From a virus: a DNA stretch of 64,000 nucleotides. The notes beneath the pieces are model-generated. The model saw only the letters and a program-made list of their open reading frames with translations. It was not told where the DNA came from and searched no databases. Of this stretch, positions 11,133 to 62,077 are shown piece after piece. The position numbers and the translations under genes are program-made. Every line of letters starts with the position of its first letter. Positions within the stretch are counted from its first letter, which is position 1. The stretch is taken from the IMG/VR virus record IMGVR_UViG_3300029922_000001, positions 230,512 through 294,511 of that record. One strand, given 5' to 3'.

Positions 11133-11492
11133 TTAGTCATTTATGTGTGCTAAACGACTTTTATAGATTAAAGTCGTTAATTCTTCATTGAGAAAAGATA
11201 TAAATTTATCATAATTAACATCGGCATTTTGAATGGAATGATTTACCTCTGGATATTTACCTTTATTCGAATGCACAATAACTTTTAAGTCTTGTAACAT
11301 AGCTCTTGTGGCTGGATTCCAAACATGTCCCCATCTACGATGTTCAAAACTTTTAAATATATCCAGTAATTCCTGAATGTTATATTTGACTCCCTTAACC
11401 ACAATGAAATAATGATGAACCCAAACTTGCTCAGACTCATATTTAACAGTATCAATGCCTAAATCATTCATAATATCAGAAGTATACCTCAA
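11133..11492 (-). CDS. hypothetical protein (weak paralog of 10767..11114)
   Basis: 119-aa ORF. Confidence 0.45.
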   Translation of the reverse strand: MRYTSDIMNDLGIDTVKYESEQVWVHHYFIVVKGVKYNIQELLDIFKSFEHRRWGHVWNPATRAMLQDLKVIVHSNKGKYPEVNHSIQNADVNYDKFISFLNEELTTLIYKSRLAHIND

Positions 11493-18429: not shown

Positions 18430-18942
18430 CTAAGTACTATCTTTAGTTGGATTAACACTAAATAATTCTTTTCTTATTTCCATCCACAATTTTCCTAATT
18501 GATTTTGTCCATCTTTATTAGGTCCCCATCCCCAAAAATTATCACGCCAACTACACTCTACGATTGCATTATCACCACTAGCTTTAAGTTTTTTCATAAC
18601 ATACGGATGTTGATTTGCTTTTTCTTTTAAAATTTCTTTCATAATATCAAGTTTAACTTCATCCCAATCAACACGTCTTATATTTTTATTTTCCTCAGCC
18701 CATTTGAAACAAGCATGTGCTGAAGGCATTTTTCTAATCATATTTTTGATTTTTGGATCGTCAAATTTCTCAGAATGATAAGCGTGTTCTGATGTTGGAT
18801 AAATCTTACCCTTCCAATATAGTTGAAATGCAGAAAAATTAGAGAAAATATAATAATCACGTTCATAACAATCAAGGATTGGTAAGTCGTAATTCGCTAA
18901 ATCGTGATATTCAATCATGCTATTATTATAAGTAATCTTCAT
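18430..18942 (-). CDS. NADAR (YbiA-like) domain protein; predicted ADP-ribose N-glycosidase/hydrolase family
   Basis: Family signatures FSNFSAF ... YPTSEHAYHSEKF ... WGWGPNKDGQNQLGKLWMEIR. Confidence 0.8.
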   Translation of the reverse strand: MKITYNNSMIEYHDLANYDLPILDCYERDYYIFSNFSAFQLYWKGKIYPTSEHAYHSEKFDDPKIKNMIRKMPSAHACFKWAEENKNIRRVDWDEVKLDIMKEILKEKANQHPYVMKKLKASGDNAIVECSWRDNFWGWGPNKDGQNQLGKLWMEIRKELFSVNPTKDST

Positions 18943-19186
18943 GATATTCTACTACTGGAGTGTTTGATTTAGCTTTAGACTCTTCTTCAGCTAACATGCC
19001 CTTTTGATAAGCCTCATTAAGCAATCTTAAATGTCTAGCTTCATGATCAGTAATCTCTCCATCCATTTGTGAAATTGAATTTATATCTTGTTCAACATAC
19101 ATCATCTTAGGAGATTCGTTAACGTCCTGAAATAATTTAAGATCGTGTGTTTTGGTTGTATTTTCGTTTATGATATTTGGTTTCAT
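18926..19186 (-). CDS. hypothetical protein
   Basis: 86-aa ORF. Its 5' end and upstream region are duplicated at 19609..19720. Confidence 0.4.
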   Translation of the reverse strand: MKPNIINENTTKTHDLKLFQDVNESPKMMYVEQDINSISQMDGEITDHEARHLRLLNEAYQKGMLAEEESKAKSNTPVVEYHEDYL

Positions 19187-19242
19187 GCTTTATTATGAGC
19201 AATAATCACGTAAGAATACCTGTTTTTGGGACTTTTAGAAAT

Positions 19243-19521
19243 TTAATGATGTAAATAAATAATCCTGATAATGCCAAAAACAGCAAAAGTAGCGACAATT
19301 ATATTGATGATTGCAGATTGATAAATTTTCTTATGATAAGTTAGAATGAATGCGCCAGTAGCACCCATTAAAACAATAATGTAATAAATTACTTGATTGG
19401 AATTAATGACATTAAAACTAGATAATGCATAAGAAAGTATTACAAAAAATACACCTATCCAACCAATAAATTCAATGATTTTGTTTTTCAACTTTGACTT
19501 CATTGAATTAGTATACCTCAC
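19243..19521 (-). CDS. small membrane protein
   Basis: Three predicted transmembrane helices. Confidence 0.4.
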   Translation of the reverse strand: MRYTNSMKSKLKNKIIEFIGWIGVFFVILSYALSSFNVINSNQVIYYIIVLMGATGAFILTYHKKIYQSAIINIIVATFAVFGIIRIIYLHH

Positions 19522-19527
19522 TCGTGG

Positions 19528-19590
19528 AGGGCTATGTGAGAATCAAAGGAATTTATATTCTTATTTAGAACTTCAATGTATGGAACCTTT
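19528..19590 (-). pseudogene. tRNA-like remnant (3' end ATAGCCC, T, CCA, CGAG) that does not fold into a cloverleaf
   Basis: Shares the CCA-CGAG 3' signature of the neighbouring tRNAs and has a TTTGATTC T-loop-like segment. No acceptor 5' partner was found. Confidence 0.25.
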
Positions 19591-19608
19591 CATATTATTA
19601 AATACACC

Positions 19609-19707
19609 AGATCATCTTAGGAGATTCGTGAACGTCCTGAAATAATTTAAGATCGTGTGTTTTGGCTGGATTTTCGTTTATGACATTTGTCTTCATGCTT
19701 TATTATG
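19609..19707 (-). pseudogene. truncated duplicate of the 5' end of gene 18926..19186 (32 codons: MKTNVINENPAKTHDLKLFQDVHESPKMIWCI, then stop)
   Basis: A segment of about 110 nt is roughly 90% identical to 19089..19200, including the upstream GCTTTATTATGAG region. Confidence 0.45.
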
Positions 19708-19723
19708 AGTAAAAATACCAGTT

Positions 19724-20074
19724 TTATACGCAGGTTTTAAGTTTGTTATTAAGGCGTTTAAACAATAAATAAACATCATTCTTGTCAGAATCGCTAATTT
19801 CCATACCCCAATAACAATTATATCCTGCTCTATGAGAACAGCCGCAGAATAAAATCTTTTGGTCGCGTTTAACGCATACATCAAAACTACCCTCCCTGGT
19901 ATTATAACCGTAATTTAAAGTTAACCCCATTTTAGAAACATCTTCAAAATCAACATTATGTGAATTAAGATCGCTTATTGTCTTAACAAAATTATGCAAC
20001 ATTACATTTTCGGGATTATAATTTTCCTCAAAATATGGGCTTGTTGTTTCTTGGAAATCTTCAAAAGTTCTCAT
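19724..20074 (-). CDS. hypothetical protein
   Basis: 116-aa ORF. The overlapping ORF 19693..19884 was rejected. Confidence 0.45.
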   Translation of the reverse strand: MRTFEDFQETTSPYFEENYNPENVMLHNFVKTISDLNSHNVDFEDVSKMGLTLNYGYNTREGSFDVCVKRDQKILFCGCSHRAGYNCYWGMEISDSDKNDVYLLFKRLNNKLKTCV

Positions 20075-20087
20075 AATTTATTATAAA

Positions 20088-20750
20088 TCAATCTTTTAGT
20101 TCCCAGCCCAATTTTATTAATTTCTTGCATAAATCTTTCCAGTGGGCTGCACCGTAATGGATATACATATTGCCTTCTTGCTCTTTAATGTGTTTAATTA
20201 AAATATCATTTCTTTCGTAAAGAACCATTTTGTATGTTATTATAAATAAAATTGTATCAATCAATTCCATTAAAAAACATTTCATAAAATCAGGTAGCAT
20301 TTTAAATAATTTTTTAATATTTTTGTAGTTTGCAAATAATAACCAGTAAATAATTTTATGTTTTACAATTATAGCTATGCTTTTTTCTGCATGTTCCTGA
20401 AAACTCATATCCGCTAAAATATATTTATTGTCTTTGAAACGTTGAATTGTGTTGCCTTCTCCAAAGTCTAGATATTCAAAAGTTTGGTTTTGGAATTTAA
20501 GTTTGTTGGAAAACCTGCGTGAGTTACTGATGTTTTTAAATCTATCGTAAATGCAAAAAATTCTTTCATCTAAAGTTTTGTATCTTAAATTACCATCACC
20601 ATAATATAGACCCTCAAATAGAAAAATGTAATTTTGATTGGTGTAAAACTCTATATCTTTTTGTATTTTTTGATATTTTTCTTTAGTGTCAAAATGCGTC
20701 ATGCCTTGAAAAACTATAGTTTGATTATTTTTGTGAAGAATTTTTTTCAT
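20088..20750 (-). CDS. hypothetical protein (possible TraB/GumN-like)
   Basis: 220-aa ORF. The motifs QGMTHF and HYGAAHW are only weakly reminiscent of TraB/GumN. Confidence 0.5.
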   Translation of the reverse strand: MKKILHKNNQTIVFQGMTHFDTKEKYQKIQKDIEFYTNQNYIFLFEGLYYGDGNLRYKTLDERIFCIYDRFKNISNSRRFSNKLKFQNQTFEYLDFGEGNTIQRFKDNKYILADMSFQEHAEKSIAIIVKHKIIYWLLFANYKNIKKLFKMLPDFMKCFLMELIDTILFIITYKMVLYERNDILIKHIKEQEGNMYIHYGAAHWKDLCKKLIKLGWELKD

Positions 20751-20931
20751 TGCGAATTGGGATTTCTATGGTGAATTTTGCGCCTGAGTTTATTAATTCA
20801 GTATTTGAGACGATTAATTTTAAAATATGATCAAATTCTTCTTTATTAATATCTTTATTTATTAATAAAAAACCAGCTTTCATCGCCATATCATATGCTT
20901 TGTTGTTGTTCATAAGTACTCGGAGGGGCAT
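20725..20931 (-). CDS. hypothetical small protein
   Basis: 68-aa ORF. Its annotated start overlaps the 3' end of tRNA 20924..21013, so the true start may be internal. Confidence 0.3.
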   Translation of the reverse strand: MPLRVLMNNNKAYDMAMKAGFLLINKDINKEEFDHILKLIVSNTELINSGAKFTIEIPIRNEKNSSQK

Positions 20932-21013
20932 ACTAGAATCAAACTAGTTCATAACGCATTTGCTAGATCATTAACCTAGCAGTGCGTCGCGATTCTCATT
21001 TCGCCAATGCCCC
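20924..21013 (-). tRNA. intron-containing class I tRNA; anticodon GCU with a canonical or 36/37 insert, or GCA (Cys) if the insert lies 1-2 nt upstream; discriminator U
   Basis: Perfect acceptor GGGGCAT/ATGCCCC. D-arm GCG/CGC. T-arm ACTAG-TTTGATT-CTAGT. Anticodon stem ACGCA/TGCGT flanks CTGCT + 17 nt + AA. The insert hairpin GCTAG..CTAGC pairs with the anticodon. Confidence 0.6.
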
Positions 21014-21023
21014 AAACTCTCGG

Positions 21024-21099
21024 AGCGCGGAGGGAGAATCGAACTCAACCGAATAATGGTTTTGCAGACCATTCCAATTAACCACTCTGGTACCCGCGC
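21024..21099 (-). tRNA. tRNA-Cys (GCA)
   Basis: Acceptor GCGCGGG/TCCGCGC. D-arm CCAG-AGTGGTTAA-TTGG. Perfect anticodon stem ATGGT/ACCAT with loop CTGCAAA. Discriminator U, then CC, then GAG. The T-stem is weak. Confidence 0.7.
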
Positions 21100-21121
21100 A
21101 TATTTATCTCGCTGAGGTTCT

Positions 21122-21802
21122 TTATACCTCATATTGCTTCATTAATTCTGGATCACTTTGAGCCGCTATCCATTTATCATATTCTTCAATTTGCTCTTTA
21201 ATTTGTTCAGCACTATCTGCTGTTTTAGATTGGCAACTTTTAATGTCGTTTAATTTACTAAATAATGATTCCACAAGAGGATGTTTTGGTAAATAACATA
21301 TTCCCTTAGAAGCATAATAATCAATTAATTCTTTTTGTTTAAGTTTTGATTCTAATTTATTTTCTTCTGAACATGAACACTTTGGATGAAATGCGTTATA
21401 CATTCTCATATCTTCAATTCTATTTTCTTCAGTGTAAGCACTACAATTAAACAAAATTTCATCATCTTTATCATCCAACTCTAACAGATTAATTAATTCT
21501 TTAATTTTATAAGTTGGTCGATTTTGCTTGTACCAATCCGATTTTTCGTTCTCTTGATTATTTATTAATAAATTCTGTTTTAATGATGGTATTAATTTTT
21601 CAAAAACCTCATGTAGTGTACTTCCTTTAATTTGCACTCTACCAGCAGGTTGAAAATTTAAATTAAATTTAATATTGCCTTTTTTGGACATTGTTAAAGT
21701 CATATGATTCGTTCCACCCATGTTACTTAATCCATCTGGACAATTTTGTAAAAACTCTTTTAATATTTTTAATGTTTTATCTATATTCATTTCCTTTACC
21801 AA
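21122..21802 (-). CDS. hypothetical protein
   Basis: 226-aa ORF. Confidence 0.5.
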   Translation of the reverse strand: MVKEMNIDKTLKILKEFLQNCPDGLSNMGGTNHMTLTMSKKGNIKFNLNFQPAGRVQIKGSTLHEVFEKLIPSLKQNLLINNQENEKSDWYKQNRPTYKIKELINLLELDDKDDEILFNCSAYTEENRIEDMRMYNAFHPKCSCSEENKLESKLKQKELIDYYASKGICYLPKHPLVESLFSKLNDIKSCQSKTADSAEQIKEQIEEYDKWIAAQSDPELMKQYEV

Positions 21803-22137
21803 GATATTGTTAACTGATAACTTTCATAACTTTCATATCCTTCGTATTCACGATCCTTTACAAGAACAACACCATATTCTTCGTCTTCAAAAAACTTTTT
21901 AACATTACAGGCAATTTGATAATTATATAATGTCTCCGTATGACATTCATACTCACCCCTTTTGGCATGTTTTTCAATTAATTTTTTACATTCATCAATG
22001 GTAGTTATTTCTAACTGTTGAAGTCGTAGTTTTTCAGATTGAGCGAATTGTCTTTCTTCTTCTTCAAGAGCAAGTCTTCTTGCTTCAATTTGTTCTTTAG
22101 CTTCTTGAGTTAATCTTCTTGCTTCTTGGATGTTCAT
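21796..22137 (-). CDS. hypothetical coiled-coil protein
   Basis: 113-aa ORF with a charged heptad-like N-terminus. Confidence 0.45.
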   Translation of the reverse strand: MNIQEARRLTQEAKEQIEARRLALEEEERQFAQSEKLRLQQLEITTIDECKKLIEKHAKRGEYECHTETLYNYQIACNVKKFFEDEEYGVVLVKDREYEGYESYESYQLTISW

Positions 22138-22145
22138 TGTAACTA

Positions 22146-22293
22146 TTATACCTTACGACGAATTCGTATGAGAGTATTATCTACTTCTTTTCTTGTGATA
22201 CCTAAAAAAGCAGCAATTGCACGATAAGATTTATTTAAACCATAAGCAATATAAACCTTGGTTTCATTTTGAGTTAATTCTAAATTATTCATA
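22146..22293 (-). CDS. small (about 48 aa) LuxR/sigma-70 region-4-type helix-turn-helix protein; not in the supplied ORF track
   Basis: Hand translation gives MNNLELTQNETKVYIAYGLNKSYRAIAAFLGITRKEVDNTLIRIRRKV. This matches the LuxR-type HTH consensus (LT..E..V......G.s..eIA..LgIs..TV...l.rI..Kl). Coordinates are +/-2 nt. Confidence 0.4.
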
Positions 22294-22318
22294 AGTGTAT
22301 TATAGCATATTTTCTCGC

Positions 22319-22407
22319 GGGAGCTTAGAGATTCGAACTCTAAAGGCGCTTTTTACACGCCTAGCTGTTTTCAAGACAGTTTACCGTCACCAATGGCAGA
22401 ACTCCCG
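22319..22407 (-). tRNA. tRNA-Ser (UGA), class II
   Basis: Acceptor GGGAGTT/AGCTCCC. Anticodon loop CTTGAAA. Variable arm GGCG-TGTAAAAAG-CGCC. T-arm TAGAG-TTCGAAT-CTCTA. Discriminator G, then CGAG. Confidence 0.7.
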
Positions 22408-22516
22408 TATTATTTCGCGGTAAGTAAAATATTCGAATTCGATTCAAAGAATATGAAGACAAACTTTGTTTAATTATTGATTCTATTTTAGGTAGACTTA
22501 ACAATTAAACATCTCG

Positions 22517-22602
22517 AAGACACCAGAATCGAACTGGACTCGCTTTTTACACGAGCGAACAACTTTCCAGGTTGCCGTCATCACCATCAGACATTATCTT
22601 CC
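22517..22602 (-). tRNA. tRNA-Ser (GGA), class II
   Basis: Acceptor GAAGATA/TGTCTTC. Anticodon stem GCAAC/GTTGT with loop CTGGAAA. Variable arm is homologous to that of the Ser(UGA) gene (..GTGTAAAAAGCG..). T-loop TTCGATT. Confidence 0.6.
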
Positions 22603-22615
22603 ATATTATCTCGGA

Positions 22616-22688
22616 GCGCCAAATTGGAATCGAACCAATTTCCTATTGCTTACCAAGCAATCGTTCACCCACATGAACTTTAAGCGCA
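22616..22688 (-). tRNA. tRNA-Thr (GGU)
   Basis: D-arm GTTC/GAAC. Perfect anticodon stem ATTGC/GCAAT with loop TTGGTAA. T-arm ATTGG-TTCGATT-CCAAT. U6:U67 mismatch in the acceptor stem. Discriminator T, then CC, then GAG. Confidence 0.7.
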
Positions 22689-22701
22689 TATATCTCGTGG
22701 A

Positions 22702-22772
22702 GGCTCAATAGAGAATCAAACTCTACTCTGCGGTTTACAAAACCGCTGCATCGTCACAATGCTTTAAAGCCA
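22702..22772 (-). tRNA. tRNA-Thr (UGU); CCA encoded (22699..22701)
   Basis: Acceptor GGCTTTA/TTGAGCC (U:U at 6:67). D-arm GCAT/ATGC. Anticodon stem GCGGT/ACCGC with loop TTTGTAA. T-arm TAGAG-TTTGATT-CTCTA. Confidence 0.7.
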
Positions 22773-22785
22773 TATTATCTCGTAA

Positions 22786-22884
22786 GCCTAGTATCTGATT
22801 CGAACAGATGATGTTTGTATTCTTACTTGTTCTATTTTTTAACACAACAAGGTAAGTGCAATCGACCGCTATGCAAACTAGGCA
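22786..22884 (-). tRNA. intron-containing tRNA (99 nt), probable anticodon UGU (Thr); duplicate of 22702..22772 carrying an insert
   Basis: Perfect acceptor GCCTAGT/ACTAGGC. T-arm ATCTG-TTCGAAT-CAGAT. Anticodon stem CTTAC/GTAAG flanks CTTGT + 18 nt + AA. The insert extends the anticodon helix (CTTGTT/AACAAG). Confidence 0.5.
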
Positions 22885-22898
22885 TTTTATCTCGTGGA

Positions 22899-22984
22899 GG
22901 AAGGCAGCGGGATCGAACCGCAGACGTATTTCAGTCCGTATAGTTTAGCAAACTATCCTAATCGCCGTTTTAGATTACCTTCCA
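22899..22984 (-). tRNA. tRNA-Ser (GCU), class II; CCA encoded (22896..22898)
   Basis: Acceptor GGAAGGT/GCCTTCC. Anticodon stem ATAGT/ACTAT with loop TTGCTAA. Long variable arm. T-loop TTCGATC. Confidence 0.65.
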
Positions 22985-22992
22985 TTATCTCG

Positions 22993-23076
22993 GCTAACGG
23001 GGAGATTCAAACTCCCGAAGGTTTTCACCGATGCATTACGAGTGCATTCCAATTGATCAACTATGGGACGTTAGCA
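22993..23076 (-). tRNA. class II-like tRNA with anticodon CGU (Thr by anticodon; identity uncertain)
   Basis: Perfect acceptor GCTAACG/CGTTAGC. Perfect anticodon stem ATGCA/TGCAT with loop CTCGTAA. Variable arm GGT-GAAA-ACC. T-arm GGGAG-TTTGAAT-CTCCC. Confidence 0.5.
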
Positions 23077-23399
23077 TTTAACATTTCTACATATCTAACT
23101 AAAACCTGACCGTGACACCTTTCTTGTTCGCCCCAACCAGTTTTAGGTCTACAAAAGCATACCAATTTTTTATTATGTAAGGATTTTACCTTATCTTTGA
23201 ATATTAAATCAGTTTCTAATCTATTTTTTAGATATTTTTCATATTCTGGTAAAGTAGAACTAGGAACTTGACCTGGAGATAATACTATTGGATTGCCAAA
23301 ATATCCACTCTGTCCTTTCCCTGCTCTACCTATGTAGACATATTCAGAATCTTGTTCCCAACCCTTGTTGAGATGATATAAATTTACTACTTCAGTCAT
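23061..23399 (-). CDS. DUF4326-like protein
   Basis: VYIGRAGKGQSGYFGNP ... KLVCFCRPKTGWGEQERCHGQVL matches the DUF4326 conserved core as recalled. Its 3' end overlaps the tRNA at 22993..23076 by about 16 nt. Confidence 0.5.
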   Translation of the reverse strand: MTEVVNLYHLNKGWEQDSEYVYIGRAGKGQSGYFGNPIVLSPGQVPSSTLPEYEKYLKNRLETDLIFKDKVKSLHNKKLVCFCRPKTGWGEQERCHGQVLVRYVEMLNANVP

Positions 23400-23952
23400 T
23401 GACTTCCTCTATATATGCTGGTGGCACATATTCTGTTAACCATACACCATTTTCAGAACGATAAAAAACAAATCTATTCAAATCCATTTGCTTTGAATCC
23501 ACCTTCAATAGTGCATACTTTCCTCTTCTAGAACCAACATTAATTGCTGTTTCTATGTTTTCAGAAAGATGAACCGCATGACGATACATCTTCTTAATTC
23601 CTTCCTCTAAAATCATTGGTACAGCATCATATGTTGTACCATGATAAAGAATGGCAGGAGGATTCAATGGAACTAACTGAAGATCAACTTCACAAGAATG
23701 ACCTTGATTGGCTCTAATTCTTGCTCCTGATTCATCATAAGAATATCTTTGCTTATTATTTTCCGTCACTAACTGATCTAAATCAGCCTTTGTGATGTTA
23801 ATATTAAACTTTTTCAAACCGTCTAATAGTTGTGTTACGAATACATAACCTCCAAGATCAAGCTTTTCAACTCCAATCTTTTGTGGCTCATGTCGCAATA
23901 TTAACGAAATAAACTTTCCTATTCTTTTAAATTCACGTTCATCCTTAATCAT
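23392..23952 (-). CDS. tpt1: RNA 2'-phosphotransferase Tpt1/KptA
   Basis: Canonical Tpt1 motifs: ISLILRHEPQKIG, ARIRANQGHS, LYHGT, RHAVHLS. Confidence 0.85.
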   Translation of the reverse strand: MIKDEREFKRIGKFISLILRHEPQKIGVEKLDLGGYVFVTQLLDGLKKFNINITKADLDQLVTENNKQRYSYDESGARIRANQGHSCEVDLQLVPLNPPAILYHGTTYDAVPMILEEGIKKMYRHAVHLSENIETAINVGSRRGKYALLKVDSKQMDLNRFVFYRSENGVWLTEYVPPAYIEEVND

Positions 23953-23974
23953 GTTCTTTTCCCTAACAATGCCC

Positions 23975-24505
23975 TTACTTTTTAGGTAAGAGCATTACTG
24001 TCATTTGTTTCCCTTGTAAGAGAATTTCCCTATCTACAGTTACAATATCATTTAGTTTTTCCAAACAATATTCCAACTTTTGCTTTCCAATATGAGGGTG
24101 AGCGAGTTCTTTTGTTTTGAACTTGCAAACCAACTGCACTTTGTCATGCTTCCCAATAAATTCAACCGCTTTACGAATTGACGTATCCAAGTCATGTACA
24201 GCCGTATTAGGGCTAATACAAAGTGTTTTAAGTTCTTGAGGCTTTTTACGGTTGTCTTTTGCACGTTTTGCCTCTTCATACTTATATTTGCCATAGCTTA
24301 CGATTTTGCAGATAGGTGGTTGTACCTTATCAGATACGCACAACAAATCTAAACCAGCATCATATGCTATTTGGATTGCATCCTTCGTGGGCATTACACC
24401 AATATTTTTGTTATTAGCGTCAATGACCGTTACTTCGGTAAATTGCTTAATGAGTCTTTCATTAAGGGGTGGGAATTCTCTGCGATTACTTTTTTTCATC
24501 ATCAT
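23975..24505 (-). CDS. infC: translation initiation factor IF3 (bacterial type)
   Basis: N-domain VTVIDANNKNIGVMPTKDAIQIAYDAGLDLLCVSDKVQPPICKIVSYGKYKYEE plus a C-domain. Matches the IF3 family end to end. Confidence 0.85.
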   Translation of the reverse strand: MMMKKSNRREFPPLNERLIKQFTEVTVIDANNKNIGVMPTKDAIQIAYDAGLDLLCVSDKVQPPICKIVSYGKYKYEEAKRAKDNRKKPQELKTLCISPNTAVHDLDTSIRKAVEFIGKHDKVQLVCKFKTKELAHPHIGKQKLEYCLEKLNDIVTVDREILLQGKQMTVMLLPKK

Positions 24506-24602
24506 AATAGATTGACCTATTATACCAGGGTATTCTTCTTCATTACAATCTTTCTCTATTCAATTTTCAATGTGCTTGAGTTTTAATTCTCGGTAAATAA
24601 AA

Positions 24603-24640
24603 AACAGGAAGTCCGACTTAGGTCTGTCGGACTTCCTGTT
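24603..24640. terminator. hairpin AACAGGAAGTCCGAC-(8 nt)-GTCGGACTTCCTGTT
   Basis: 15-bp perfect arms, unusually GC-rich for this sequence. Downstream of the minus-strand gene 24793..25326. Confidence 0.5.
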
Positions 24641-24792
24641 GAATCTTTCTATTTGGTTTTCTTTATGCTTGCCCGACAACAGCATTTCTACAGCTTCCAC
24701 AACTTGTGGAACTGGTAGTACTTGATGTTGATGTTGACGTGACTAATTTCATTTTAACCTGCTACGTTTATTATACCCAATGTTTTGATTGT

Positions 24793-25326
24793 TTACCATG
24801 TTTTTTTGCTTTTACCATCAAAACCTGTTTCTTTTAAGATTCTATCCCAAATTTCTTCTTTTGGAGTGTTCCCTAAATATGGATCTTTTGCCCAATTCAA
24901 GTTGGTAATTTCTAGTATAACAGGAAATGGTGGAGTATAGGCTTCAGCTTCTTCTAAAGAAGAAAATTCCATTTCCATACTAAGCAAATAATGTCTATGG
25001 ATCATATATTCATTAATTTCTTCACCGCTAGATAAAAAAGTTCTTCGTTTTTCAACTCTTTTCATTTTTGGTATTAAATTGTAATTATAAAACCAATTAA
25101 AAAGAAAAATTGGGATTTTAATATTGTATTCTTTTCTGACCAAAGGATCTGAGGTTTTTAATTTAAAAGTTAATTCGCATTTATTTGAAACTGAATATGT
25201 TTTACGAATGCGACAACTTTTAAAAAATGGAAAATATCCTTGTGAAATGTATACGTTGTGTGTTTGAGTATCCCAAGGAATATCATTTTGATTTACTATA
25301 AACTTGCGTTCAATTTCATTAGCCAT
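24793..25326 (-). CDS. hypothetical protein, member of a local tandem paralog family (MANEIERKFIV...)
   Basis: 177 aa. The N- and C-terminal halves recur separately in 25653..25886 and 25340..25600. Confidence 0.5.
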   Translation of the reverse strand: MANEIERKFIVNQNDIPWDTQTHNVYISQGYFPFFKSCRIRKTYSVSNKCELTFKLKTSDPLVRKEYNIKIPIFLFNWFYNYNLIPKMKRVEKRRTFLSSGEEINEYMIHRHYLLSMEMEFSSLEEAEAYTPPFPVILEITNLNWAKDPYLGNTPKEEIWDRILKETGFDGKSKKTW

Positions 25327-25339
25327 GCTTTAGTATACT

Positions 25340-25886
25340 TCATTTACCAGGACCCCACTCAAGACCAGGGAATTTATTTAAATTTTCCTCAATTTCTTTC
25401 CAGGGTGTGATTGATAGATATGGCTCTTTCGCCCAAGGCACATGTGTAATCTCTGTAACGTACTTGAAATCAGGAATATAAGCTTGTGCATCTTCCAGAG
25501 AATCAAATTCCATTTCTACGATTACATAATACTGACCAGGATATTCATTAATTTGTTCTCCTGTTGGAATAATGTGTCGTGTTTTTTTAGTTTTAGTCAT
25601 CCAAGGTGTAAGATACCAAAGCGGGAAAAAGACAAATTTAGGGATTTTAAAGTTATATTCCTTCCTGTCCTAAATTGGTCTGTTTATTCTTGTTTTTCTT
25701 GAATGTCAATTCGTATGTGCGGTCTTCATCTGAATATAATTCTTCATAGGTAATGATAGACTCACGAATTCTGAGATTTTTAATTAAAGGGAAATATCCT
25801 TGGGAAATGTCATGCCATTCTATAACATTTTCCCAAGGAATTTGGGTTGGTCGCACTATAAACTTGCGTTCAATTTCATTAGCCAT
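25340..25886 (-). pseudogene. disrupted paralog of 24793..25326, split into an N-terminal ORF (25653..25886) and a C-terminal ORF (25340..25600) in different frames
   Basis: The 31-nt string TATAAACTTGCGTTCAATTTCATTAGCCAT is identical at 25296..25326 and 25856..25886. C-terminal homology: EMEFDSLEDAQAY..PWAKEPYL versus EMEFSSLEEAEAY..NWAKDPYL. Confidence 0.45.
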
Positions 25887-25893
25887 ATGGCTA

Positions 25894-26883
25894 TTATACT
25901 TGAGCAAGTTCGGCTTGTAGCTCTTTAATGCGCTTTTGGAGTTCAAGTTTCTTTTTAAGTGTCGCTTCTTCTCTAAGCAAAGCTTGGAATTCAGCATCAA
26001 CTTCTTCCACTGCAACAGTCTCTAAAGCAACATGCTTCTTTATGGCTTTAGCTGCTTTAGGCATTTCTGTAGCCAAGATTGGTACATATCCTCTTAGTAT
26101 AAGAGTAAGACTTGTTGCATGATCTTCAATATCAATCCATTCTTTTTGACCAAAGGTTTGATTGGATCTGCTACCTTCAACAGTGCAAACATCTTGTTCT
26201 CTTGATTCATTTAAAGATTTTGGCATAGCATTCGCAAATGAGTCTAAAGAATCCATTGACATGCTTGAAGCGGAATATGTTGGAGAACCAAAGCTTAATG
26301 AATTCAGTGAATTTACTGAATCTGAGCATAATCCTCTTACATTGCTTTTCATGGAAGATTGACCAATTAAAGCATTATTACTACCACACCAGACTTCATC
26401 ATGTCGTCTAGGGTAATGCTTGTAAGGGTATGAATAATCACGATACCAAGGATATGAATAATCATGATAATGATGATGATCTACTACGATTGGAATGTAG
26501 ACTGGTTGTGGTTTTTCTTTTTCTAACCAGAAGAAGGCTTCAACAACACCTTTGGAGCGGTCTTCATTAGAACCATTTTTTCCAAAATCAATAGCGTCAT
26601 TACTGTCTAAAGCAGCTAATTTAAAGCATTTGTTGGTTTCATAGAAGCGTTCAAGATCAATTGCGCTGTTAGCGTTAATAATATATCCATCACCGGATAC
26701 ATTTTCCCCGTCAATATGAATTTTGACCAAGGCTCTACGATTGTTTTTGTTTCTGAGGCGTAAACTATATTCTGATCCGAATGGAACTAGTACAGAATGA
26801 TCGTTTCTCTCTGGGAGAAAGTCGTTTTGATTTTTGAGCTTGATAGCAAGCACGAAGTTTTTGTTATACATATTTTTAACCAT
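25894..26883 (-). CDS. hypothetical protein with His/Tyr-rich low-complexity segment and C-terminal coiled coil
   Basis: The ORF is open to 26949. An internal Met at about 26883 avoids overlapping the divergent PARP gene. Contains HHHYHDYSYPWYRDYSYPYKHY. Confidence 0.5.
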   Translation of the reverse strand: MVKNMYNKNFVLAIKLKNQNDFLPERNDHSVLVPFGSEYSLRLRNKNNRRALVKIHIDGENVSGDGYIINANSAIDLERFYETNKCFKLAALDSNDAIDFGKNGSNEDRSKGVVEAFFWLEKEKPQPVYIPIVVDHHHYHDYSYPWYRDYSYPYKHYPRRHDEVWCGSNNALIGQSSMKSNVRGLCSDSVNSLNSLSFGSPTYSASSMSMDSLDSFANAMPKSLNESREQDVCTVEGSRSNQTFGQKEWIDIEDHATSLTLILRGYVPILATEMPKAAKAIKKHVALETVAVEEVDAEFQALLREEATLKKKLELQKRIKELQAELAQV

Positions 26884-27081
26884 TATAATCCTAACTCTTG
26901 TCCTCATGAGAGCGTGATTCGGCACCTTAATGGCGAGTGCCAAGGACAATTCTATTATACACCCGTTTTGAGGTTTTTTACCTTCGGATTAAAAAACAGT
27001 CCAAACACAATAAAATTAATTATAATAAATTACCTTGTGAATAGGCTTGACAGTCTGAGGAATAGGAGGTATTATAACAAC

Positions 27082-28380
27082 ATGAGTAGCATTCTCGCTA
27101 GTAAGAAATACATTTATACGGATATCCAGGCGAATAACAATAAGTTCTGGAATATTGACCGCTATGACGATCATACAGTAATTACACGTTGGGGACGTGT
27201 TGGCGACAAAGAACAAAGCAAATCTTTCCCACATGGATCTGAAACTTCCGCAATTGCTTTTTTTAATCAAAAGTGTAGTGAAAAATCCAAGAAGGGTTAT
27301 ACCGAACAACGAACCATTGAATCCAATACTACCGTAAAGCAAACAACCGTTGCTTCATCCAATCTTGAAAGTATTGCTAAAAGACAGATTCAAACTAATT
27401 CACCTGAACTAGATGCTTTGATTTCAAGGCTTACCAAAGCTAACATTCATAGCATTGTCGCAAACAGTAATATTAGCTATAACGATACAACTGGTTTGTT
27501 TTCAACGCCATTAGGAATTATTGATGAAGATGCGATTTTGGAAGCTAGAGAACTTCTAGTGTCCATTAATTCTATTGTTCTCAATAGAGACTTTGGAAAT
27601 AAGGATTTTGCTGGAATCACCAATAAGTATTTTAGAATCGTTCCTACAGTTATCGGTAGATATCGTCAAGAACCTCAAGACCTATTCCCTAATAAGGAAA
27701 CCGTTGTAAAGCAAAATGATCTTTTGGACTCACTTGAAGTCAGCTTGCAAACTGCTAAGGCAACCCCTGTAACTGCTACAACATCTGTTGAACCTGAAAA
27801 GAACATCTTTAATGTTAAGCTTCATGTGGTTGATGATCTTCCTGTTATTCAACGAATTACAGCCAAATATCAATCAACAATGAATCGTGGTCATCAGTGT
27901 TCCCATCTTGGTGTTAAGCGTGTTTATGAATTAGAAATTGGTGCTATGAAGACTGCTTTCGAAAATAAGGGTAAGCAAATTGGTGGTATTCAAGAGTTGT
28001 GGCACGGTTCAAGAGTTGCCAATATTCTTTCTATTCTCTATAAGGGAATGATTATCCCACCTTCTAATTCTAGTTTTGTGGCTGGTCGTTTGTTTGGAGA
28101 CGGTTTGTATTTTGCCAACCAAAGCACAAAGTCTCTTAATTATTCTTATGGATATTGGGATGCTAAAGGCAAGGACGAAAATTGCTTTATGTTCCTTTGT
28201 GATGTAGCTATGGGCAAGCACTATACTCCTAAGTATTTACAATCCAATATTCCTGCTGGATATGATAGTTTCTGGGCTAAGGCTGGTATTTCTGGCGTAC
28301 AGAATGATGAAATCATCGTTCCACGTCTTTATCAAGCCAATCCTAGATATTTGATCGAATTCTCACCAGGTGGTAGATAA
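27082..28380 (+). CDS. poly(ADP-ribose) polymerase (WGR domain + PARP regulatory/catalytic domains)
   Basis: WGR domain FWNIDRYDDHTVITRWGRVGDKEQSKS. Catalytic region HGSRVANILSILYKGM ... GDGLYFANQSTKSLNYS ... E in the C-terminus. True ATG is at 27082; the longer track ORF from 26797 overlaps the neighbouring gene. Confidence 0.85.
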   Translation: MSSILASKKYIYTDIQANNNKFWNIDRYDDHTVITRWGRVGDKEQSKSFPHGSETSAIAFFNQKCSEKSKKGYTEQRTIESNTTVKQTTVASSNLESIAKRQIQTNSPELDALISRLTKANIHSIVANSNISYNDTTGLFSTPLGIIDEDAILEARELLVSINSIVLNRDFGNKDFAGITNKYFRIVPTVIGRYRQEPQDLFPNKETVVKQNDLLDSLEVSLQTAKATPVTATTSVEPEKNIFNVKLHVVDDLPVIQRITAKYQSTMNRGHQCSHLGVKRVYELEIGAMKTAFENKGKQIGGIQELWHGSRVANILSILYKGMIIPPSNSSFVAGRLFGDGLYFANQSTKSLNYSYGYWDAKGKDENCFMFLCDVAMGKHYTPKYLQSNIPAGYDSFWAKAGISGVQNDEIIVPRLYQANPRYLIEFSPGGR

Positions 28381-55246: not shown

Positions 55247-55696
55247 TTGAGAATACTATTTTTAGATGACATGCCTGAACGCTATGACTACTTCATGGGT
55301 TTGTTGAACCGTCCAGATATTGAAGTTGATTGGGCTAAAAATGCTGATGAATTTTATCCGATGCTTGAAAATCCAAGATATGACATTTTCTTTTTGGATC
55401 ATGATTTAAGTGCAGAACATTACACTAAATTAAACACCCTAGATCAAGCAGATCATACAAAAATAGAATGTAAAGAAGAAACTGGATATGATATTACTAA
55501 ACGATTAATCCACTTACAAAAAGACAAACATCCTGATTATATTGTTGTTCATACACTGAATTCTCAAGGTGGTAAAAATATGATGTCTTGTTTAAGAGAA
55601 ATGGATTCAACTCTTATTCGCGCATATTTCGCATTTCCTGATTTTCAGAATGTGGTTTATCAACTCGCCCACCAAAAAATTAGTAAAACTAATTAG
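55247..55696 (+). CDS. hypothetical protein, possible receiver (REC/CheY-like) fold
   Basis: MRILFLDD ... DIFFLDHDLS ... YIVVHTLNSQGG resembles REC beta1/beta3/beta4 elements. This is a weak call. TTG start 2 nt after the upstream stop. Confidence 0.4.
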   Translation: MRILFLDDMPERYDYFMGLLNRPDIEVDWAKNADEFYPMLENPRYDIFFLDHDLSAEHYTKLNTLDQADHTKIECKEETGYDITKRLIHLQKDKHPDYIVVHTLNSQGGKNMMSCLREMDSTLIRAYFAFPDFQNVVYQLAHQKISKTN

Positions 55697-57371: not shown

Positions 57372-58250
57372 ATGATGAAATCAAAATCTCAAGAGGTGTG
57401 GATGCTACGCGGCGTCCCCGGCAGTGGAAAAAGCACTTGGGCAAAGGAATTTATTAAAAATAATCCTGGTTATGTTCGCACTAATAACGATGAAATTAGA
57501 CTTGAAATGTTTAATCGCGTTTTTGATAAGAATGATACTAAGGCTGTTGATGCTGAGCGAAACAGAGTTATTAAGGAAACCCTTGATAATGGTCTTAGTA
57601 TTGTTATTGATAACACTAATTTGTCACCTAAGCGTGAAGACGAATACAAGACGTTGGCGAAGAAGTATGGTGCTGAATTTAAGATTCAGTGTTTTATGCA
57701 TGTACCTTTACGTGATTGTTTGGCAAACAACTATAAGCGACCTAATCCGGTTGGTGAGAAGATTATCAAGGATATGTACAGACAGTTTGTAGAGCCTTTG
57801 TTGAAGCCAACTCCTGTTGAATATGTAGAGGGTTTAGAGGACGTGTACGTGTGCGATATGGATCAAACATTATCTTTAATGAAAGGAATTCGTGGACCTT
57901 TCGAATGGCATAAGGTTAATTTAGATTTACCAAATATTCCGGTAGTTAAATTAATTCAAAAACTTGCTAAGACAAATAAAATCATTATTATGTCTGGTAG
58001 GGATGGTTGTTGCCGTGATTTAACTATTGAATGGCTTAATCAACATGAAGTTCCGTTTTTTGAATTGCATATGAGGGCGATGAATGACTCTAGAAAGGAT
58101 AGTACTGTGAAGGAAGAACTTTATAAATCAAAATTACAATATCGTTTTAATATTCTAGGTTGGTTCGACGACCGCGAAGCGGTTTGTGAACTAGTTTATT
58201 CATTAGGATTACCACTGTTCCGTGTGGGGGACCCTCATAGTTCGTTTTGA
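57372..58250 (+). CDS. bifunctional polynucleotide 5'-kinase / 3'-phosphatase (T4 PseT-like): N-terminal P-loop kinase + C-terminal HAD phosphatase
   Basis: Walker A LRGVPGSGKSTWAKEF. HAD motif I CDMDQTLS (DxDxT) in the C-terminal half. Preceded by TTGGTATAATCAATGT-ATG. Confidence 0.75.
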   Translation: MMKSKSQEVWMLRGVPGSGKSTWAKEFIKNNPGYVRTNNDEIRLEMFNRVFDKNDTKAVDAERNRVIKETLDNGLSIVIDNTNLSPKREDEYKTLAKKYGAEFKIQCFMHVPLRDCLANNYKRPNPVGEKIIKDMYRQFVEPLLKPTPVEYVEGLEDVYVCDMDQTLSLMKGIRGPFEWHKVNLDLPNIPVVKLIQKLAKTNKIIIMSGRDGCCRDLTIEWLNQHEVPFFELHMRAMNDSRKDSTVKEELYKSKLQYRFNILGWFDDREAVCELVYSLGLPLFRVGDPHSSF

Positions 58251-61151: not shown

Positions 61152-61511
61152 TTATACACCCAATTCTGCTTTGAGTTGTTCAAGCATCTTTTGCTTCTTT
61201 TCTAACTCTTTTTGCTGTCGCTTCTTTTCTGCTTCAGTTTTCTTGAGTTCTCTAGCAATTCGACTTCTTTCTTCATCATCTTTTTGCTTTTGAACGAAAA
61301 CCTTGATAGATTTTATTTTTTCTTGTATGAATGGTTGTGATGTTACATCATCATAGAGCATATAGTCATAGTTGTGCTGTGCCCACTTTTTCAACCATTC
61401 ATAATCTTCTTCACTAACTTCTTCCCAGTCGCTAAAATCATCTGAGGGACTCTTATGATCGCAATCATAACATCTTTCACCATAGACACGAATTATCTTT
61501 ACTTTTCTCAT
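61152..61511 (-). CDS. hypothetical protein with Cys pair and Lys/Glu-rich coiled-coil tail
   Basis: 119-aa ORF. Confidence 0.45.
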   Translation of the reverse strand: MRKVKIIRVYGERCYDCDHKSPSDDFSDWEEVSEEDYEWLKKWAQHNYDYMLYDDVTSQPFIQEKIKSIKVFVQKQKDDEERSRIARELKKTEAEKKRQQKELEKKQKMLEQLKAELGV

Positions 61512-62077
61512 ACCTTATTATACGTATAAGGGTTTGTATATTGTATAGCAGTTGTCTTTCTTACTCCAGCATCAAAACGCTTTTGAGCTAATGCAATTGA
61601 AGCCGCTACTGTATCTGATAATGTGTTATAGATAGGAAGTTCGTCATATCCCTGATCCTCTGCATCAACCTTATTCATGATATCAGGATAAGACATGCGA
61701 TAGGCGTCATCAGGTCTACCGTAGACAACCTTCTCATGATTACGTCCCATCCAATATCCTAGCTCATAATTAGTGGTTAAACCAATTAGCTCTCTTGTTC
61801 TAGGAATCCAGAACAAGATGGCATCAGCATTAACAAGACCAGTAAACTCCCATCGTGGAATCCAGCCCTTGCCAAGATCACTCTCAGTACGAACAGTAAA
61901 TTCTGGAGATACGAGAATGCCCTCAAATCCTTGCTTAGTAAACTCTTCAACGCACTCAATGCGCCAAGAAGTCAAGTGCGGTTGATTTCCGCGAACGGTG
62001 TTTCCAGCGAGGAAAATTATAGGAACCTTCTCATTATAAAGATTGTCTAAAGAAGTCTCATATCTAAATAGTTTCAT
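61508..62077 (-). CDS. nucleoside 2-deoxyribosyltransferase-like (NDT/LOG/DUF4406 Rossmann-like fold) protein
   Basis: IIFLAGN ... ADAILFWIP ... GLTTNYELGYWMG matches the conserved NDT-like Gx(T/S)xxE(L/I)G motif. Confidence 0.6.
   Translation of the reverse strand: MKLFRYETSLDNLYNEKVPIIFLAGNTVRGNQPHLTSWRIECVEEFTKQGFEGILVSPEFTVRTESDLGKGWIPRWEFTGLVNADAILFWIPRTRELIGLTTNYELGYWMGRNHEKVVYGRPDDAYRMSYPDIMNKVDAEDQGYDELPIYNTLSDTVAASIALAQKRFDAGVRKTTAIQYTNPYTYNKV

Follow-up and report, generated by a model that had tools for sequence, protein, structure and literature searches.

Genes encoding a NADAR protein, a DUF4326 protein, the RNA 2'-phosphotransferase Tpt1/KptA and a WGR-PARP were found in a stretch of 64 kb (hereafter, the window) of a metagenomic contig of 521,591 bp from a huge tailed phage (Table 1). 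The viral origin suggested in the first-pass annotation was borne out by head-protein-like paralogues and a GH108 endolysin encoded on the contig, which also carries tRNAs and a tmRNA (ARAGORN) and bacterial-type IF3 and LysRS. INPHARED held no close relative of this uncultured 521-kb phage. Besides the window, about 16 kb of flanking sequence (~8 kb on each side) was read. All four ORFs were present at exactly the coordinates listed, and a second, independent gene caller returned the same products from the source contig, differing only in a NADAR start eight codons later. Judged from sequence, the Pfam scores of the NADAR, DUF4326, Tpt1, PARP and polynucleotide kinase-phosphatase (PNKP) proteins are far above chance, protein by protein, and the catalytic or family-invariant residues of the first four are intact. 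The domain assignments of the first-pass annotation were upheld for these four proteins, all above their Pfam thresholds, and for the PNKP; its NDT-like assignment was borderline.

Table 1 Genes and sequence features of the window discussed in the text
Feature	Coordinates	Strand	Evidence or remark
YbiA-type NADAR (ribosyl N-glycosidase / base-ADP-ribose glycohydrolase family)	18430..18942	-	Pfam NADAR E 4e-27
Six tRNA genes: Ser-tga, Ser-gga, Thr-ggt, Thr-tgt, Ser-gct, Thr-cgt	22317..23075	-	ARAGORN
DUF4326 protein, 112 aa	23061..23399	-	Pfam E 3e-14, 54 bits (cut-off 25)
Tpt1/KptA NAD-dependent RNA 2'-phosphotransferase	23392..23952	-	Pfam E 2e-44, 152.5 bits (cut-off 26)
IF3 (translation initiation factor) homologue, first gene of probable unit	23975..24505	-	IF3_N E 1e-23, IF3_C E 3e-19
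Promoter-like site TTGTAA-18-TATAAT with TG	24519-24548	-	Consensus scan; between CYTH and IF3
Terminator-like hairpin (15-bp stem, then T run)	24603-24640	-	Consensus scan; between CYTH and IF3
CYTH / triphosphate-tunnel metalloenzyme homologue	24793..25326	-	phmmer against PDB: NeuTTM (3typ, 2fbl) E 4e-6
Second CYTH copy, split	25340-25600 + 25653-25884		Paralogy by local phmmer
351-aa protein, family without name	25894..26949	-	Divergent from PARP
WGR - helical domain - PARP catalytic domain protein, 432 aa, PARP2-like architecture	27082..28380	+	Pfam
cREC (cyclic-phosphate-processing receiver-like) domain protein	55271..55696	+	PF20274 E 1.4e-12, 48.5 bits (cut-off 27)
T4-type PNKP (P-loop kinase + HAD phosphatase)	57372..58250	+	HAD_PNKP E 4e-32, AAA_33 E 2e-20
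NDT-like (nucleoside 2-deoxyribosyltransferase-like), borderline	61508..62077	-	PF15891 29.7 bits (cut-off 30)

IF3, Tpt1, DUF4326 and the six tRNA genes probably form one unit. Tpt1 lies 22 nt downstream of IF3 and overlaps DUF4326 by 8 nt, and the 3' end of the DUF4326 ORF shares 15 nt with tRNA-Thr(cgt); the tRNA array directly downstream is context and not an ADP-ribose gene. The promoter-like site and the strong terminator-like hairpin upstream of IF3 are pattern matches only, and promoter-like sites are no commoner in the region than in shuffled sequence. In Tpt1, R20, H21, R69 and R124 are invariant columns of a 25-sequence alignment. DUF4326 has been seen in NAD/ADP-ribose contexts, as the first-pass annotation had it (PMC7824862, PMC9503650), and others predict an enzyme that processes phosphates of ADP-ribose derivatives. 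No intron-containing tRNA was detected in the window by ARAGORN.

The NADAR gene follows 4.1 kb downstream of the Tpt1-DUF4326 pair. Its product scored 95.8 bits against Pfam NADAR (cut-off 35.1) and 87.9 bits against NCBIfam TIGR02464 (cut-off 73.7), had E. coli YbiA as the top solved-structure match (2b3w, E 2e-22, residues 28-160 aligned), and retains the motifs PTSEH (E52), IVEC (E129, Glu-type last strand) and RDNFWGWG. NADARs reverse ADP-ribosylation of guanine or cytosine bases, and phosphate-end ADP-ribosylation is not a substrate (PMC11833690; on substrate range see also PMC11543638, PMC11125620, PMC12945103). Tpt1 and PARPs modify nucleic acids at phosphate ends. Because NADAR acts on base N-glycosidic links and is inactive on phosphate ends, it is not the eraser of Tpt1 or PARP products. 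That phage NADARs can counter DarT-like enzymes, as suggested, is documented: they are proven anti-DarT1 factors (PMC11825919). The YbiA-type status of the window NADAR counts against the protective role proposed for it below: detoxification of riboflavin intermediates has also been proposed as a housekeeping role for this subfamily, and E. coli YbiA conferred no protection against DarT1 in vivo (PMC11125620).

PARP is encoded on the strand opposite to NADAR, Tpt1 and DUF4326. Pfam recognized its catalytic domain (E 3e-23, 83 bits, cut-off 26.7) and WGR domain (E 5e-16, 58.9 bits, cut-off 22), PARP_reg scored 26.6 bits, just under the cut-off of 26.8, and residues 12-379 align with the WGR-HD-CAT of human PARP2. 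An alignment of 27 family members shows H308, Y343 and E410 to be invariant. A total of 763 homologues were found at E<=1e-5, the closest cellular ones belonging to Armatimonadota in 20 of 27 genome matches, and the clade is common mainly to huge phages and Armatimonadota. In bacteria, WGR-PARPs carry out DNA-dependent PARylation (PMC8120803). Between PARP and the Tpt1 unit lie the CYTH homologue (N-terminal EIERKF motif; phrog_6660 match, E 3e-13) with its split copy, and the 351-aa protein, which had no match in Pfam, PHROG or PADLOC. Three other phage loci also have a homologue of the latter close to PARP: adjacent and divergent in L093, at 1.5 kb in L122 and at 6 kb in L142.

The cREC gene was missed in the first-pass annotation; a precomputed annotation concurs with its assignment. 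Homologues of the NDT-like protein lie 107 bp upstream of PARP in one phage locus (L147, 59% identical) and 360 bp upstream of Tpt1 in another (L065, 40%). The search for a macro-domain gene proposed at the outset located one in the same genome, 7.4 kb past the window end. Macro proteins are real erasers of phosphate-end and protein ADP-ribose. HNH, GIY-YIG and TnpB genes were also present within the window.

To place these genes in context, we compared non-redundant sets of viral loci, 40 around Tpt1 and 63 around PARP (66 for tRNA counts). In general, NADAR, DUF4326, Tpt1 and PARP are rarely neighbours of each other. Near Tpt1, PARP was found at one of the 40 loci, NADAR at five within 10 kb (four within 3.2 kb), and DUF4326 at none by a single-query local HMM of limited sensitivity; nor was DUF4326 among the best 25 of 45 Pfam families in the two genes on either side. 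NADAR lay within 10 kb of PARP at 6 of 63 loci; Tpt1 and DUF4326 were found close to PARP at none of them. The co-occurrence of homologues that the first-pass annotation had named as a test of its reading was therefore largely lacking. One relative keeps the block from PARP through the 351-aa protein, CYTH, IF3, Tpt1 and DUF4326 to the tRNAs at ~70% amino-acid identity, and PARP loci further off are without Tpt1 and DUF4326. In another huge phage (L008), Tpt1 belongs to a PTH2-Tpt1-x-x-NADAR-PDF-GlxRS cluster. Phage PARPs recurrently adjoin DNA or RNA ligases (four ATP-dependent DNA ligases and three to four RNA ligases among 150 ORFs at ±2 genes, and one further ligase in L007), and one ligase was counted among the 141 ORFs around viral Tpt1; no ligase adjoins PARP in the window. 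Transfer RNAs were within 1 kb of Tpt1 at 5/40 loci and of PARP at 5/66 (within 10 kb, 11/40 and 31/66), so having a tRNA close by does not distinguish Tpt1.

All these families are already known in jumbo phages (Iyer et al. 2021, 2022), and phage NADARs as anti-DarT1 factors (PMC11825919). On balance, and with moderate confidence, we read the region as an accessory-gene stretch of a huge phage that holds several independent members of the NAD/ADP-ribose repertoire and no single system. Three modules are proposed. The first comprises IF3, Tpt1, DUF4326 and the six tRNAs; its layout is observed and its function is what we infer. With its intact R-H-R-R tetrad, Tpt1 would use NAD+ to strip a 2'-phosphate off RNA, possibly at the junction left after repair of a nuclease-cut tRNA, and would release ADP-ribose 1'',2''-cyclic phosphate. 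This product or its phosphate may be disposed of by the translationally coupled DUF4326 or, alternatively, by the Macro protein, and cREC and PNKP, about 32 kb off, would heal cyclic-phosphate and 5'-OH ends. Against such a function, two assemblies of the nearest relative show an in-frame TAA in Tpt1 ahead of the essential R-H dyad, and Tpt1 may thus be dispensable. The second module, the stand-alone NADAR, most likely acts as a glycohydrolase on ADP-ribosylated G or C bases, with a soluble ribosyl N-glycoside as the alternative substrate, and would shield phage nucleic acid against host base-directed ADP-ribosyltransferases. The third, the WGR-PARP with its intact H-Y-E triad, is most likely an ADP-ribosyltransferase switched on by DNA nicks or breaks, which would serve phage DNA metabolism or host takeover.

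It is possible, though unlikely, that the genes other than PARP make up a single NAD-dependent RNA-repair pathway as reconstructed by Aravind and colleagues. In this pathway, whose logic is laid out in PMC9503650, cREC would open 2',3'-cyclic phosphates, PNKP phosphorylate the 5'-OH, an unseen ligase seal the ends and Tpt1 remove the junction 2'-phosphate, with NADAR, DUF4326 and Macro degrading ADP-ribose 1'',2''-cyclic phosphate. All but the ligase lie inside the window or, for Macro, just beyond. Viral Tpt1 neighbours elsewhere include RNA ligase, Thg1, SIR2, NAMPT, calcineurin-like phosphoesterases (Pfam Metallophos) and NADAR, with a PNKP 0.9 kb upstream of Tpt1 in L083. The NADAR counts within 3.2 kb of Tpt1 fit as well, as does the distance of 1.1 kb between Tpt1 and NADAR in L008. 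However, the roughly 80 kb read (the window and ~8 kb to each side) yielded neither an RNA ligase nor a 2H phosphoesterase, so the pathway is incomplete there, which also counts against the function proposed for the first module. The components of the pathway are scattered across at least 50 kb. Against both as well, a pathway through the T4-type 3'-phosphatase of PNKP needs no Tpt1, and Tpt1 is interrupted in the relative. NADAR turns up within 10 kb of PARP nearly as frequently as within 10 kb of Tpt1, and neither NADAR nor DUF4326 is known to act on ADP-ribose cyclic phosphate.

The first-pass annotation favoured one reversible ADP-ribosylation system, in which PARP and Tpt1 would write on nucleic acids or proteins and NADAR with DUF4326 would erase. 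Within 10 kb there are indeed two NAD-consuming transferases, both intact, and two or more putative ADP-ribose processors; the block from PARP to the tRNAs is syntenic in the relative, the Macro gene is in the same genome, and the NDT-like homologues beside PARP and Tpt1 hint at a shared NAD-linked biology. Such a single coordinated set is nevertheless improbable: the chemistry of NADAR (PMC11833690) mismatches the Tpt1 and PARP products, the genes are split over strands and transcription units, their co-localisation breaks down beyond the close relative, and the families listed around the 25 closest cellular PARP loci include no PARG, macro or ARH as a conserved neighbour. An accidental co-location of singly acquired genes without functional link, some maybe decaying, in a variable island rich in tRNAs and homing endonucleases would accommodate the Armatimonadota affinity of PARP and of the best-named Tpt1 match (such a lineage being a possible donor), the mobile-element genes of the window, the tRNA-rich loci flanked by homing endonucleases that surround many PARP and Tpt1 genes of other phages, the split CYTH copy and the stop codon in the relative's Tpt1, but is likewise improbable given that every catalytic or invariant residue is kept in all four proteins, that the Tpt1/DUF4326 overlap is preserved at 70% identity and that 44-58% identity to cellular homologues indicates transfers that are not recent.

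The first-pass interpretation is, overall, partly supported. Its statement that no described system combines all these genes overlooked two surveys that treat the families as co-occurring parts of a jumbo-phage NAD+/ADP-ribose network (PMC7824862, PMC9503650), with which the window shares the same families in the same kind of genome. There, KptA/Tpt1 was reported from some jumbo phages, for RNA repair, PARP/PART from a few and NADAR from about 48% of medium and jumbo phages, and DUF4326 and cREC were handled as ADP-ribose or cyclic-phosphate processing domains beside PNK-HAD (Iyer et al. 2021, 2022). Unlike in those descriptions, Tpt1 and DUF4326 overlap here inside an IF3-tRNA unit, an arrangement seen at none of the 40 other viral Tpt1 loci, and the NADAR is plain YbiA-type without fusion. 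The PARP shares its WGR/helical/ART architecture, H-Y-E triad and length of ~430 aa with bacterial WGR-PARPs of Herpetosiphon aurantiacus and Clostridioides difficile CD160 (PMC8120803); the characterised bacterial enzymes are paired with PARG, whereas none was found in the window, and PARG was absent among the recurrent neighbours of the 63 phage and 25 cellular PARP loci. Like AdfN (T4 gp30.3 and the Bas32/Bas60 NADARs), which neutralises DarTG1, the window NADAR stands alone, lacks the DarG1 N-terminal extension and conserves the catalytic residues, but T4-type AdfN has His for the last-strand Glu, which the window NADAR keeps, passing the YbiA/riboflavin N-glycosidase model cut-off; only one phage NADAR was found near the YbiA group (PMC11825919). 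Finally, the fungal and plant Trl1-Tpt1-Poa1 route of tRNA ligation with Appr>p / Appr1p processing (PMC8120803, PMC9503650) differs from the phage set in that no phage ligase was seen, the components are scattered and the PNKP phosphatase is T4-type, and resembles it in the Tpt1 catalytic tetrad and in a genome that holds a polynucleotide kinase, a putative cyclic-phosphate opener (cREC) and Macro.

The ADP-ribose-related genes named by the first-pass annotation were all found as open reading frames at the positions it gave, and a second, independent gene prediction for the source contig gave the same products, apart from a NADAR start placed 8 codons later. Profile searches confirmed every assignment to NADAR, DUF4326, Tpt1 and WGR-PARP, and PNKP proved to be a T4-type kinase with a HAD phosphatase. 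For the NDT-like gene a family match was seen, yet it falls narrowly below the Pfam cut-off. The cREC, CYTH and Macro genes come in addition to those that the first-pass annotation named. The observation itself therefore stands, and its interpretation has partial support; what had been taken for one set of ADP-ribose writers and erasers is best read as three or four separate modules instead.

Features of the window and of the adjoining contig of the same phage (L163), with supporting matches
Feature	Position	Strand	Support or remark
AAA_28 P-loop proteins (two)	1486-2070 and 53962-54582	both -	family includes NadR ribosylnicotinamide kinase domain
Stand-alone Glx-tRNA-synthetase anticodon-binding domain protein	11489-12091		translation-related
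NADAR	18430-18942	-	Pfam E 4e-27; PF08719 95.8 bits vs 35.1
DUF4326	23061-23399	-	Pfam E 3e-14; 54 bits vs 25
Tpt1/KptA	23392-23952	-	Pfam E 2e-44
Promoter-like site	24519-24548	-	5' of IF3
Hairpin, 15-bp stem and T run	24603-24640	-	5' of IF3
CYTH/triphosphate-tunnel homologue	24793-25326	-	
Second CYTH/triphosphate-tunnel paralogue	25340-25600 + 25653-25884	-	split N-/C-terminal ORFs; part of middle missing
WGR-PARP, 432 aa	27082-28380	+	Pfam WGR E 5e-16; PARP_reg marginal; PARP catalytic domain E 3e-23
LysRS	34304-35779		translation-related
HNH homing-endonuclease genes	38287-39183 and 43436-44302		
TnpB/OrfB_IS605-type gene	45772-46764	+	Cas12f1-like TNB domain
GIY-YIG/NUMOD3 homing-endonuclease gene	51206-52018		
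TnpB/OrfB_IS605-type gene	52685-53728	-	Cas12f1-like TNB domain
cREC (cyclic-phosphate-processing receiver)	55271-55696		PF20274 48.5 bits vs 27; precomputed annotation agrees
PNKP	57372-58250		T4-type kinase + HAD phosphatase
Tandem head-protein-like paralogues (two)	58569-59789 + 59948-61027	-	major-head-protein phrog_2522, E 3e-17 and 4e-13
NDT-like	61508-62077		0.3 bits below Pfam cut-off
tmRNA	63063-63416	+	phage-encoded; tag peptide GKSYAYVG*
Macro, 190 aa, MacroD-like	L163:663-1235 (= ~71441-72013 window-extended)	+	NAAN, GGGLD, GIFGFP motifs

The window corresponds to bases 231,361-295,360 of a 521,591-bp metagenome contig (ENA ERZ27248709, k141_1408874), whose size, together with genes for head-like proteins, a GH108 endolysin, 11 tRNAs and a tmRNA, bacterial-type IF3 and LysRS, TnpB and homing endonucleases, identifies the source as a huge phage. 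No close relative among deposited phages was retrieved by megablast of 12 kb against INPHARED. From its TnpB, HNH and GIY-YIG genes, the stretch is recognisable as a variable accessory region. The tmRNA, LysRS, IF3 and the Glx-tRNA-synthetase anticodon-binding protein form a translation-related gene set. The 406-aa and 359-aa proteins beside PNKP, suspected as RNA ligases, matched a major-head-protein PHROG instead. Serglycin matches in the profile searches were discounted as artefacts of Gly-Ser linkers. The window AAA_28 proteins may have a role in NAD salvage. An AAA_28 gene of another phage (L095) adjoins ARH and an NMNAT-like gene.

Of the ADP-ribose genes, Tpt1 and DUF4326 alone are tightly linked physically. 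In the order IF3-Tpt1-DUF4326 on the minus strand, a 22-nt gap is followed by an 8-nt overlap, Tpt1 and DUF4326 are translationally coupled, and the DUF4326 ORF overlaps the first gene of a six-tRNA array by 15 nt. The PTS_2-RNA domain of Tpt1 scores 152.5 bits (threshold 26) over profile positions 4-176 of 177, and the Arg-His-Arg-Arg tetrad that defines Tpt1/KptA (PMC8120803) is found at R20, H21, R69 and R124, all of them invariant positions in an alignment of 25 sequences. DUF4326 keeps every family-invariant residue of a 46-sequence alignment, in the motifs YIGR (Y22-I23-G24-R25), FGNP (F34-G35-N36), CFC.P (C81, C83) and CHG (C95-H96-G97). From the coupling, a hypothetical substrate can be named for DUF4326: the cyclic phosphate of ADP-ribose that Tpt1 produces. 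The domain has been proposed to process the terminal phosphates of ADP-ribose derivatives (PMC7824862, PMC9503650) and to have a rhodanese-phosphatase-like fold (PMC9503650). Its AF2 model is confident (pLDDT 92) and matches other viral DUF4326 proteins in BFVD; Foldseek returned no match for it, and the profile-profile comparison with NADARs was not significant. The CX5R phosphatase loop is absent from the family, and its invariant CxC...CH residues might just as well form a metal site. In a relative phage with ~70% amino acid identity, the Tpt1 orthologue (L093:7645-8194) carries an in-frame TAA (…GAA AAT TAA TTT TCC…) directly before the essential Arg-His dyad. Two assemblies (L093, L094) show it in identical form, and the overlapping DUF4326 is intact there. 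The TAA is a pseudogene mark, a readthrough site or an assembly error, and Tpt1 may be dispensable in this lineage.

The PARP catalytic domain (PF00644) scores 83 bits, above the Pfam gathering score of 26.7, and the WGR domain, N-terminal to the ART domain, reaches 58.9 bits (cut-off 22); the helical domain PARP_reg is marginal at 26.6 against 26.8 bits. Residues 12-379 align continuously to WGR-HD-CAT of human PARP2, with matching H and Y motifs, and the H-Y-E triad (H308, Y343, E410) is invariant in 27 homologues. E410 was assigned by local alignment to a PARP1 motif. The best sigma-70-like match in the region (27047-27075, plus strand; TTGACA-17-TATTAT, 11/12) ends 7 nt ahead of the PARP start codon, so that the mRNA would be nearly leaderless; promoter-like sites overall were no more frequent than in shuffled sequence. 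Bacterial WGR-PARPs are DNA-dependent PARylating enzymes (PMC8120803). Unlike in the bacterial PARP-PARG pair, no PAR glycohydrolase partner was seen for the window PARP: PARG, ARH and macro matches were absent from the scanned window ORFs and from the recurrent neighbours listed for phage or cellular PARP homologues. The Macro gene lies ~43 kb away.

Alignment-based scans were needed for the IMG/VR searches, as single-protein scans found almost nothing; they gave 66 viral PARP loci (L096-L161), 63 of them non-redundant. In the 150 ORFs around phage PARPs, the functional families that recur are ATP-dependent DNA ligase (4 cases) and RNA ligase (3-4 cases); homing endonucleases and DUF7487 make up the rest of the recurrent families, whereas a ligase was seen once among 141 Tpt1-flanking ORFs. 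Some 15% of phage WGR-PARP loci (L004, L096-L161) have a ligase at most two genes away, either ATP-dependent DNA ligase or RNA ligase, and at one further PARP locus DNA ligase is two genes off and ARH 4 kb off; in the window, no ligase lies next to PARP. The ligase-rich neighbourhood fits a nick- or break-sensing role, as for eukaryotic PARP1-3, and suggests a PARP-ligase nick-handling axis in bacterial viruses.

Armatimonadota accounted for 20 of the 27 cellular genome matches to PARP (L164-L190), megabase contigs among them. The closest cellular homologues have 44-51% identity, and the gene, found in Chthonomonadaceae, Armatimonadaceae and Capsulimonadales, stands alone amid housekeeping genes; no PARG, macro or ARH neighbour recurred beside cellular PARP homologues. 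For Tpt1, the best-named homologue belongs to Fimbriimonas (58%). Armatimonadota, almost alone, share this PARP clade and may be the host or a gene-exchange partner. As a host assignment from the PARP and Tpt1 affinities this is weakened by base composition, since the phage has 33% GC and those genomes have 52-65%, which argues against a simple assignment.

NADAR also passes the NCBIfam YbiA-type model TIGR02464 (87.9 against 73.7 bits), and its best PDB match is E. coli YbiA (2b3w, 133 residues aligned). The last beta-strand residue is Glu in the YbiA subfamily, Asp in DarT1-linked and His in T4-type NADARs (PMC11125620), and the window protein has the Glu ('AIVEC' opposite YbiA 'KLVEH'). The gene lies 4.1 kb further downstream of the IF3-Tpt1-DUF4326-tRNA unit on the same strand, separated from it by nine small ORFs and a seventh tRNA. 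In contrast to the DarT1-NADAR toxin-antitoxin system, no DarT ADP-ribosyltransferase gene adjoins it, and its neighbours are without family match. A phage-borne defence system was dismissed as the identity of these genes, as PADLOC found no known system among the proteins and, near NADAR, a weak match to a candidate family.

Experiments have shown that phage NADARs clear phage DNA of the ADP-ribose that DarT1 installs (PMC11825919). [quoted passage not shown] For such ends, Macro could take that part. A macro-domain gene was indeed found elsewhere in the genome, 7.4 kb past the window end beside a DFP/CoaBC-like gene, on a contig that matches the window at 100% identity across 9.35 kb; its product could plausibly erase ADP-ribose from phosphate ends or proteins, or process ADP-ribose-1''-phosphate. 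PARG, ARH, 2H, Nudix and RNA ligase were not detected in window ORFs of at least 60 aa and ~8 kb on each side.

PARP is transcribed divergently from a 351-aa gene of no known family, and the ~70% relative keeps the full block from PARP through orf351-CYTH-IF3-Tpt1-DUF4326 to the tRNAs, with one CYTH copy only (L093). A shared block at this identity is ordinary synteny, and beyond this relative the association dissolves. In 40 non-redundant loci derived from the best 80 of 261 IMG/VR Tpt1-encoding stretches, local HMM searches within 10 kb of Tpt1 found PARP once (L015), NADAR five times and DUF4326 never; a 115-aa ORF after Tpt1 in another viral stretch (L008), suspected as DUF4326, showed no similarity by BLASTP. 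Conversely, neither Tpt1 nor DUF4326 occurred within 10 kb of PARP in the 66 viral loci, and NADAR did so in six distinct loci. Tpt1 and PARP lie 150 kb apart on one other contig (L018, L128).

A PTH2-Tpt1-x-x-NADAR-deformylase-GlxRS cluster in another huge phage indicates that a loose Tpt1-NADAR link recurs. Within 3.2 kb NADAR is commoner by Tpt1 (4/40, all on the same strand) than by PARP (2/63), but within 10 kb the two are almost equal, so the link is weak. A Pfam scan of two genes on each side of Tpt1 found neck and sheath proteins and Ku, with single cases of SIR2, NAMPT, Thg1, RNA ligase, NADAR and NDT-like genes. In one huge phage an NDT-like homologue precedes WGR-PARP by 107 bp (L147:9322-9807, 59% identity), and in another such a homologue precedes Tpt1 by 360 bp (L065:5841-6320, 40% identity), which ties this uncharacterised family to two different NAD-consuming transferases. 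The position of Tpt1 within tRNA arrays was rejected as specific evidence of a tRNA role, since the PARP control loci gave similar or higher values (tRNA within 1 kb, 5/40 Tpt1 against 5/66 PARP loci; within 10 kb, 11/40 against 31/66); tRNA neighbourhood is a property of big-phage accessory regions, not of Tpt1. Suppressor-type cta/tta-anticodon tRNAs are present in arrays near Tpt1 in three other Tpt1-carrying viral contigs (L042, L071, L072), which hints at stop-codon recoding in those phages.

As separate modules, the IF3-Tpt1-DUF4326-tRNA unit is predicted to perform NAD-dependent RNA 2'-phosphate removal and by-product clean-up, the YbiA-type NADAR probably serves base-ADP-ribose removal or counter-defence, the PARP2-like transferase would sense nicks, and cREC, PNKP and Macro are putative distant end-healing genes. 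We consider it improbable that ADP-ribose serves this phage as a chemical cap, placed reversibly on the ends of nucleic acids. In that case 5'-phosphorylated DNA nicks would be marked or protected by WGR-PARP and then handed to a ligase, Tpt1 would cap 5'-phosphate RNA or tRNA fragments, and Macro and DUF4326 would take off the marks or phosphate by-products, DUF4326 being a stripped-down NADAR-fold relative and dedicated Tpt1 partner. If true, this would give an enzymatic role to DUF4326, a widespread viral domain of unknown function.

The genes are of value as an example rather than a discovery, with intact PARP, Tpt1, NADAR, DUF4326, cREC, PNKP and Macro in one uncultured 521-kb phage, and the leads (Tpt1-DUF4326 coupling, PARP-ligase proximity and Armatimonadota affinity) overturn nothing in current understanding. 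The first-pass annotation held that no described system combines all of these families. Two surveys already describe them in jumbo phages, whose repertoire includes KptA/Tpt1, NADAR, PARP-like ARTs, DUF4326, cREC, PNK-HAD, CYTH and IF3 (PMC7824862, PMC9503650), and all modules found here belong to that repertoire.
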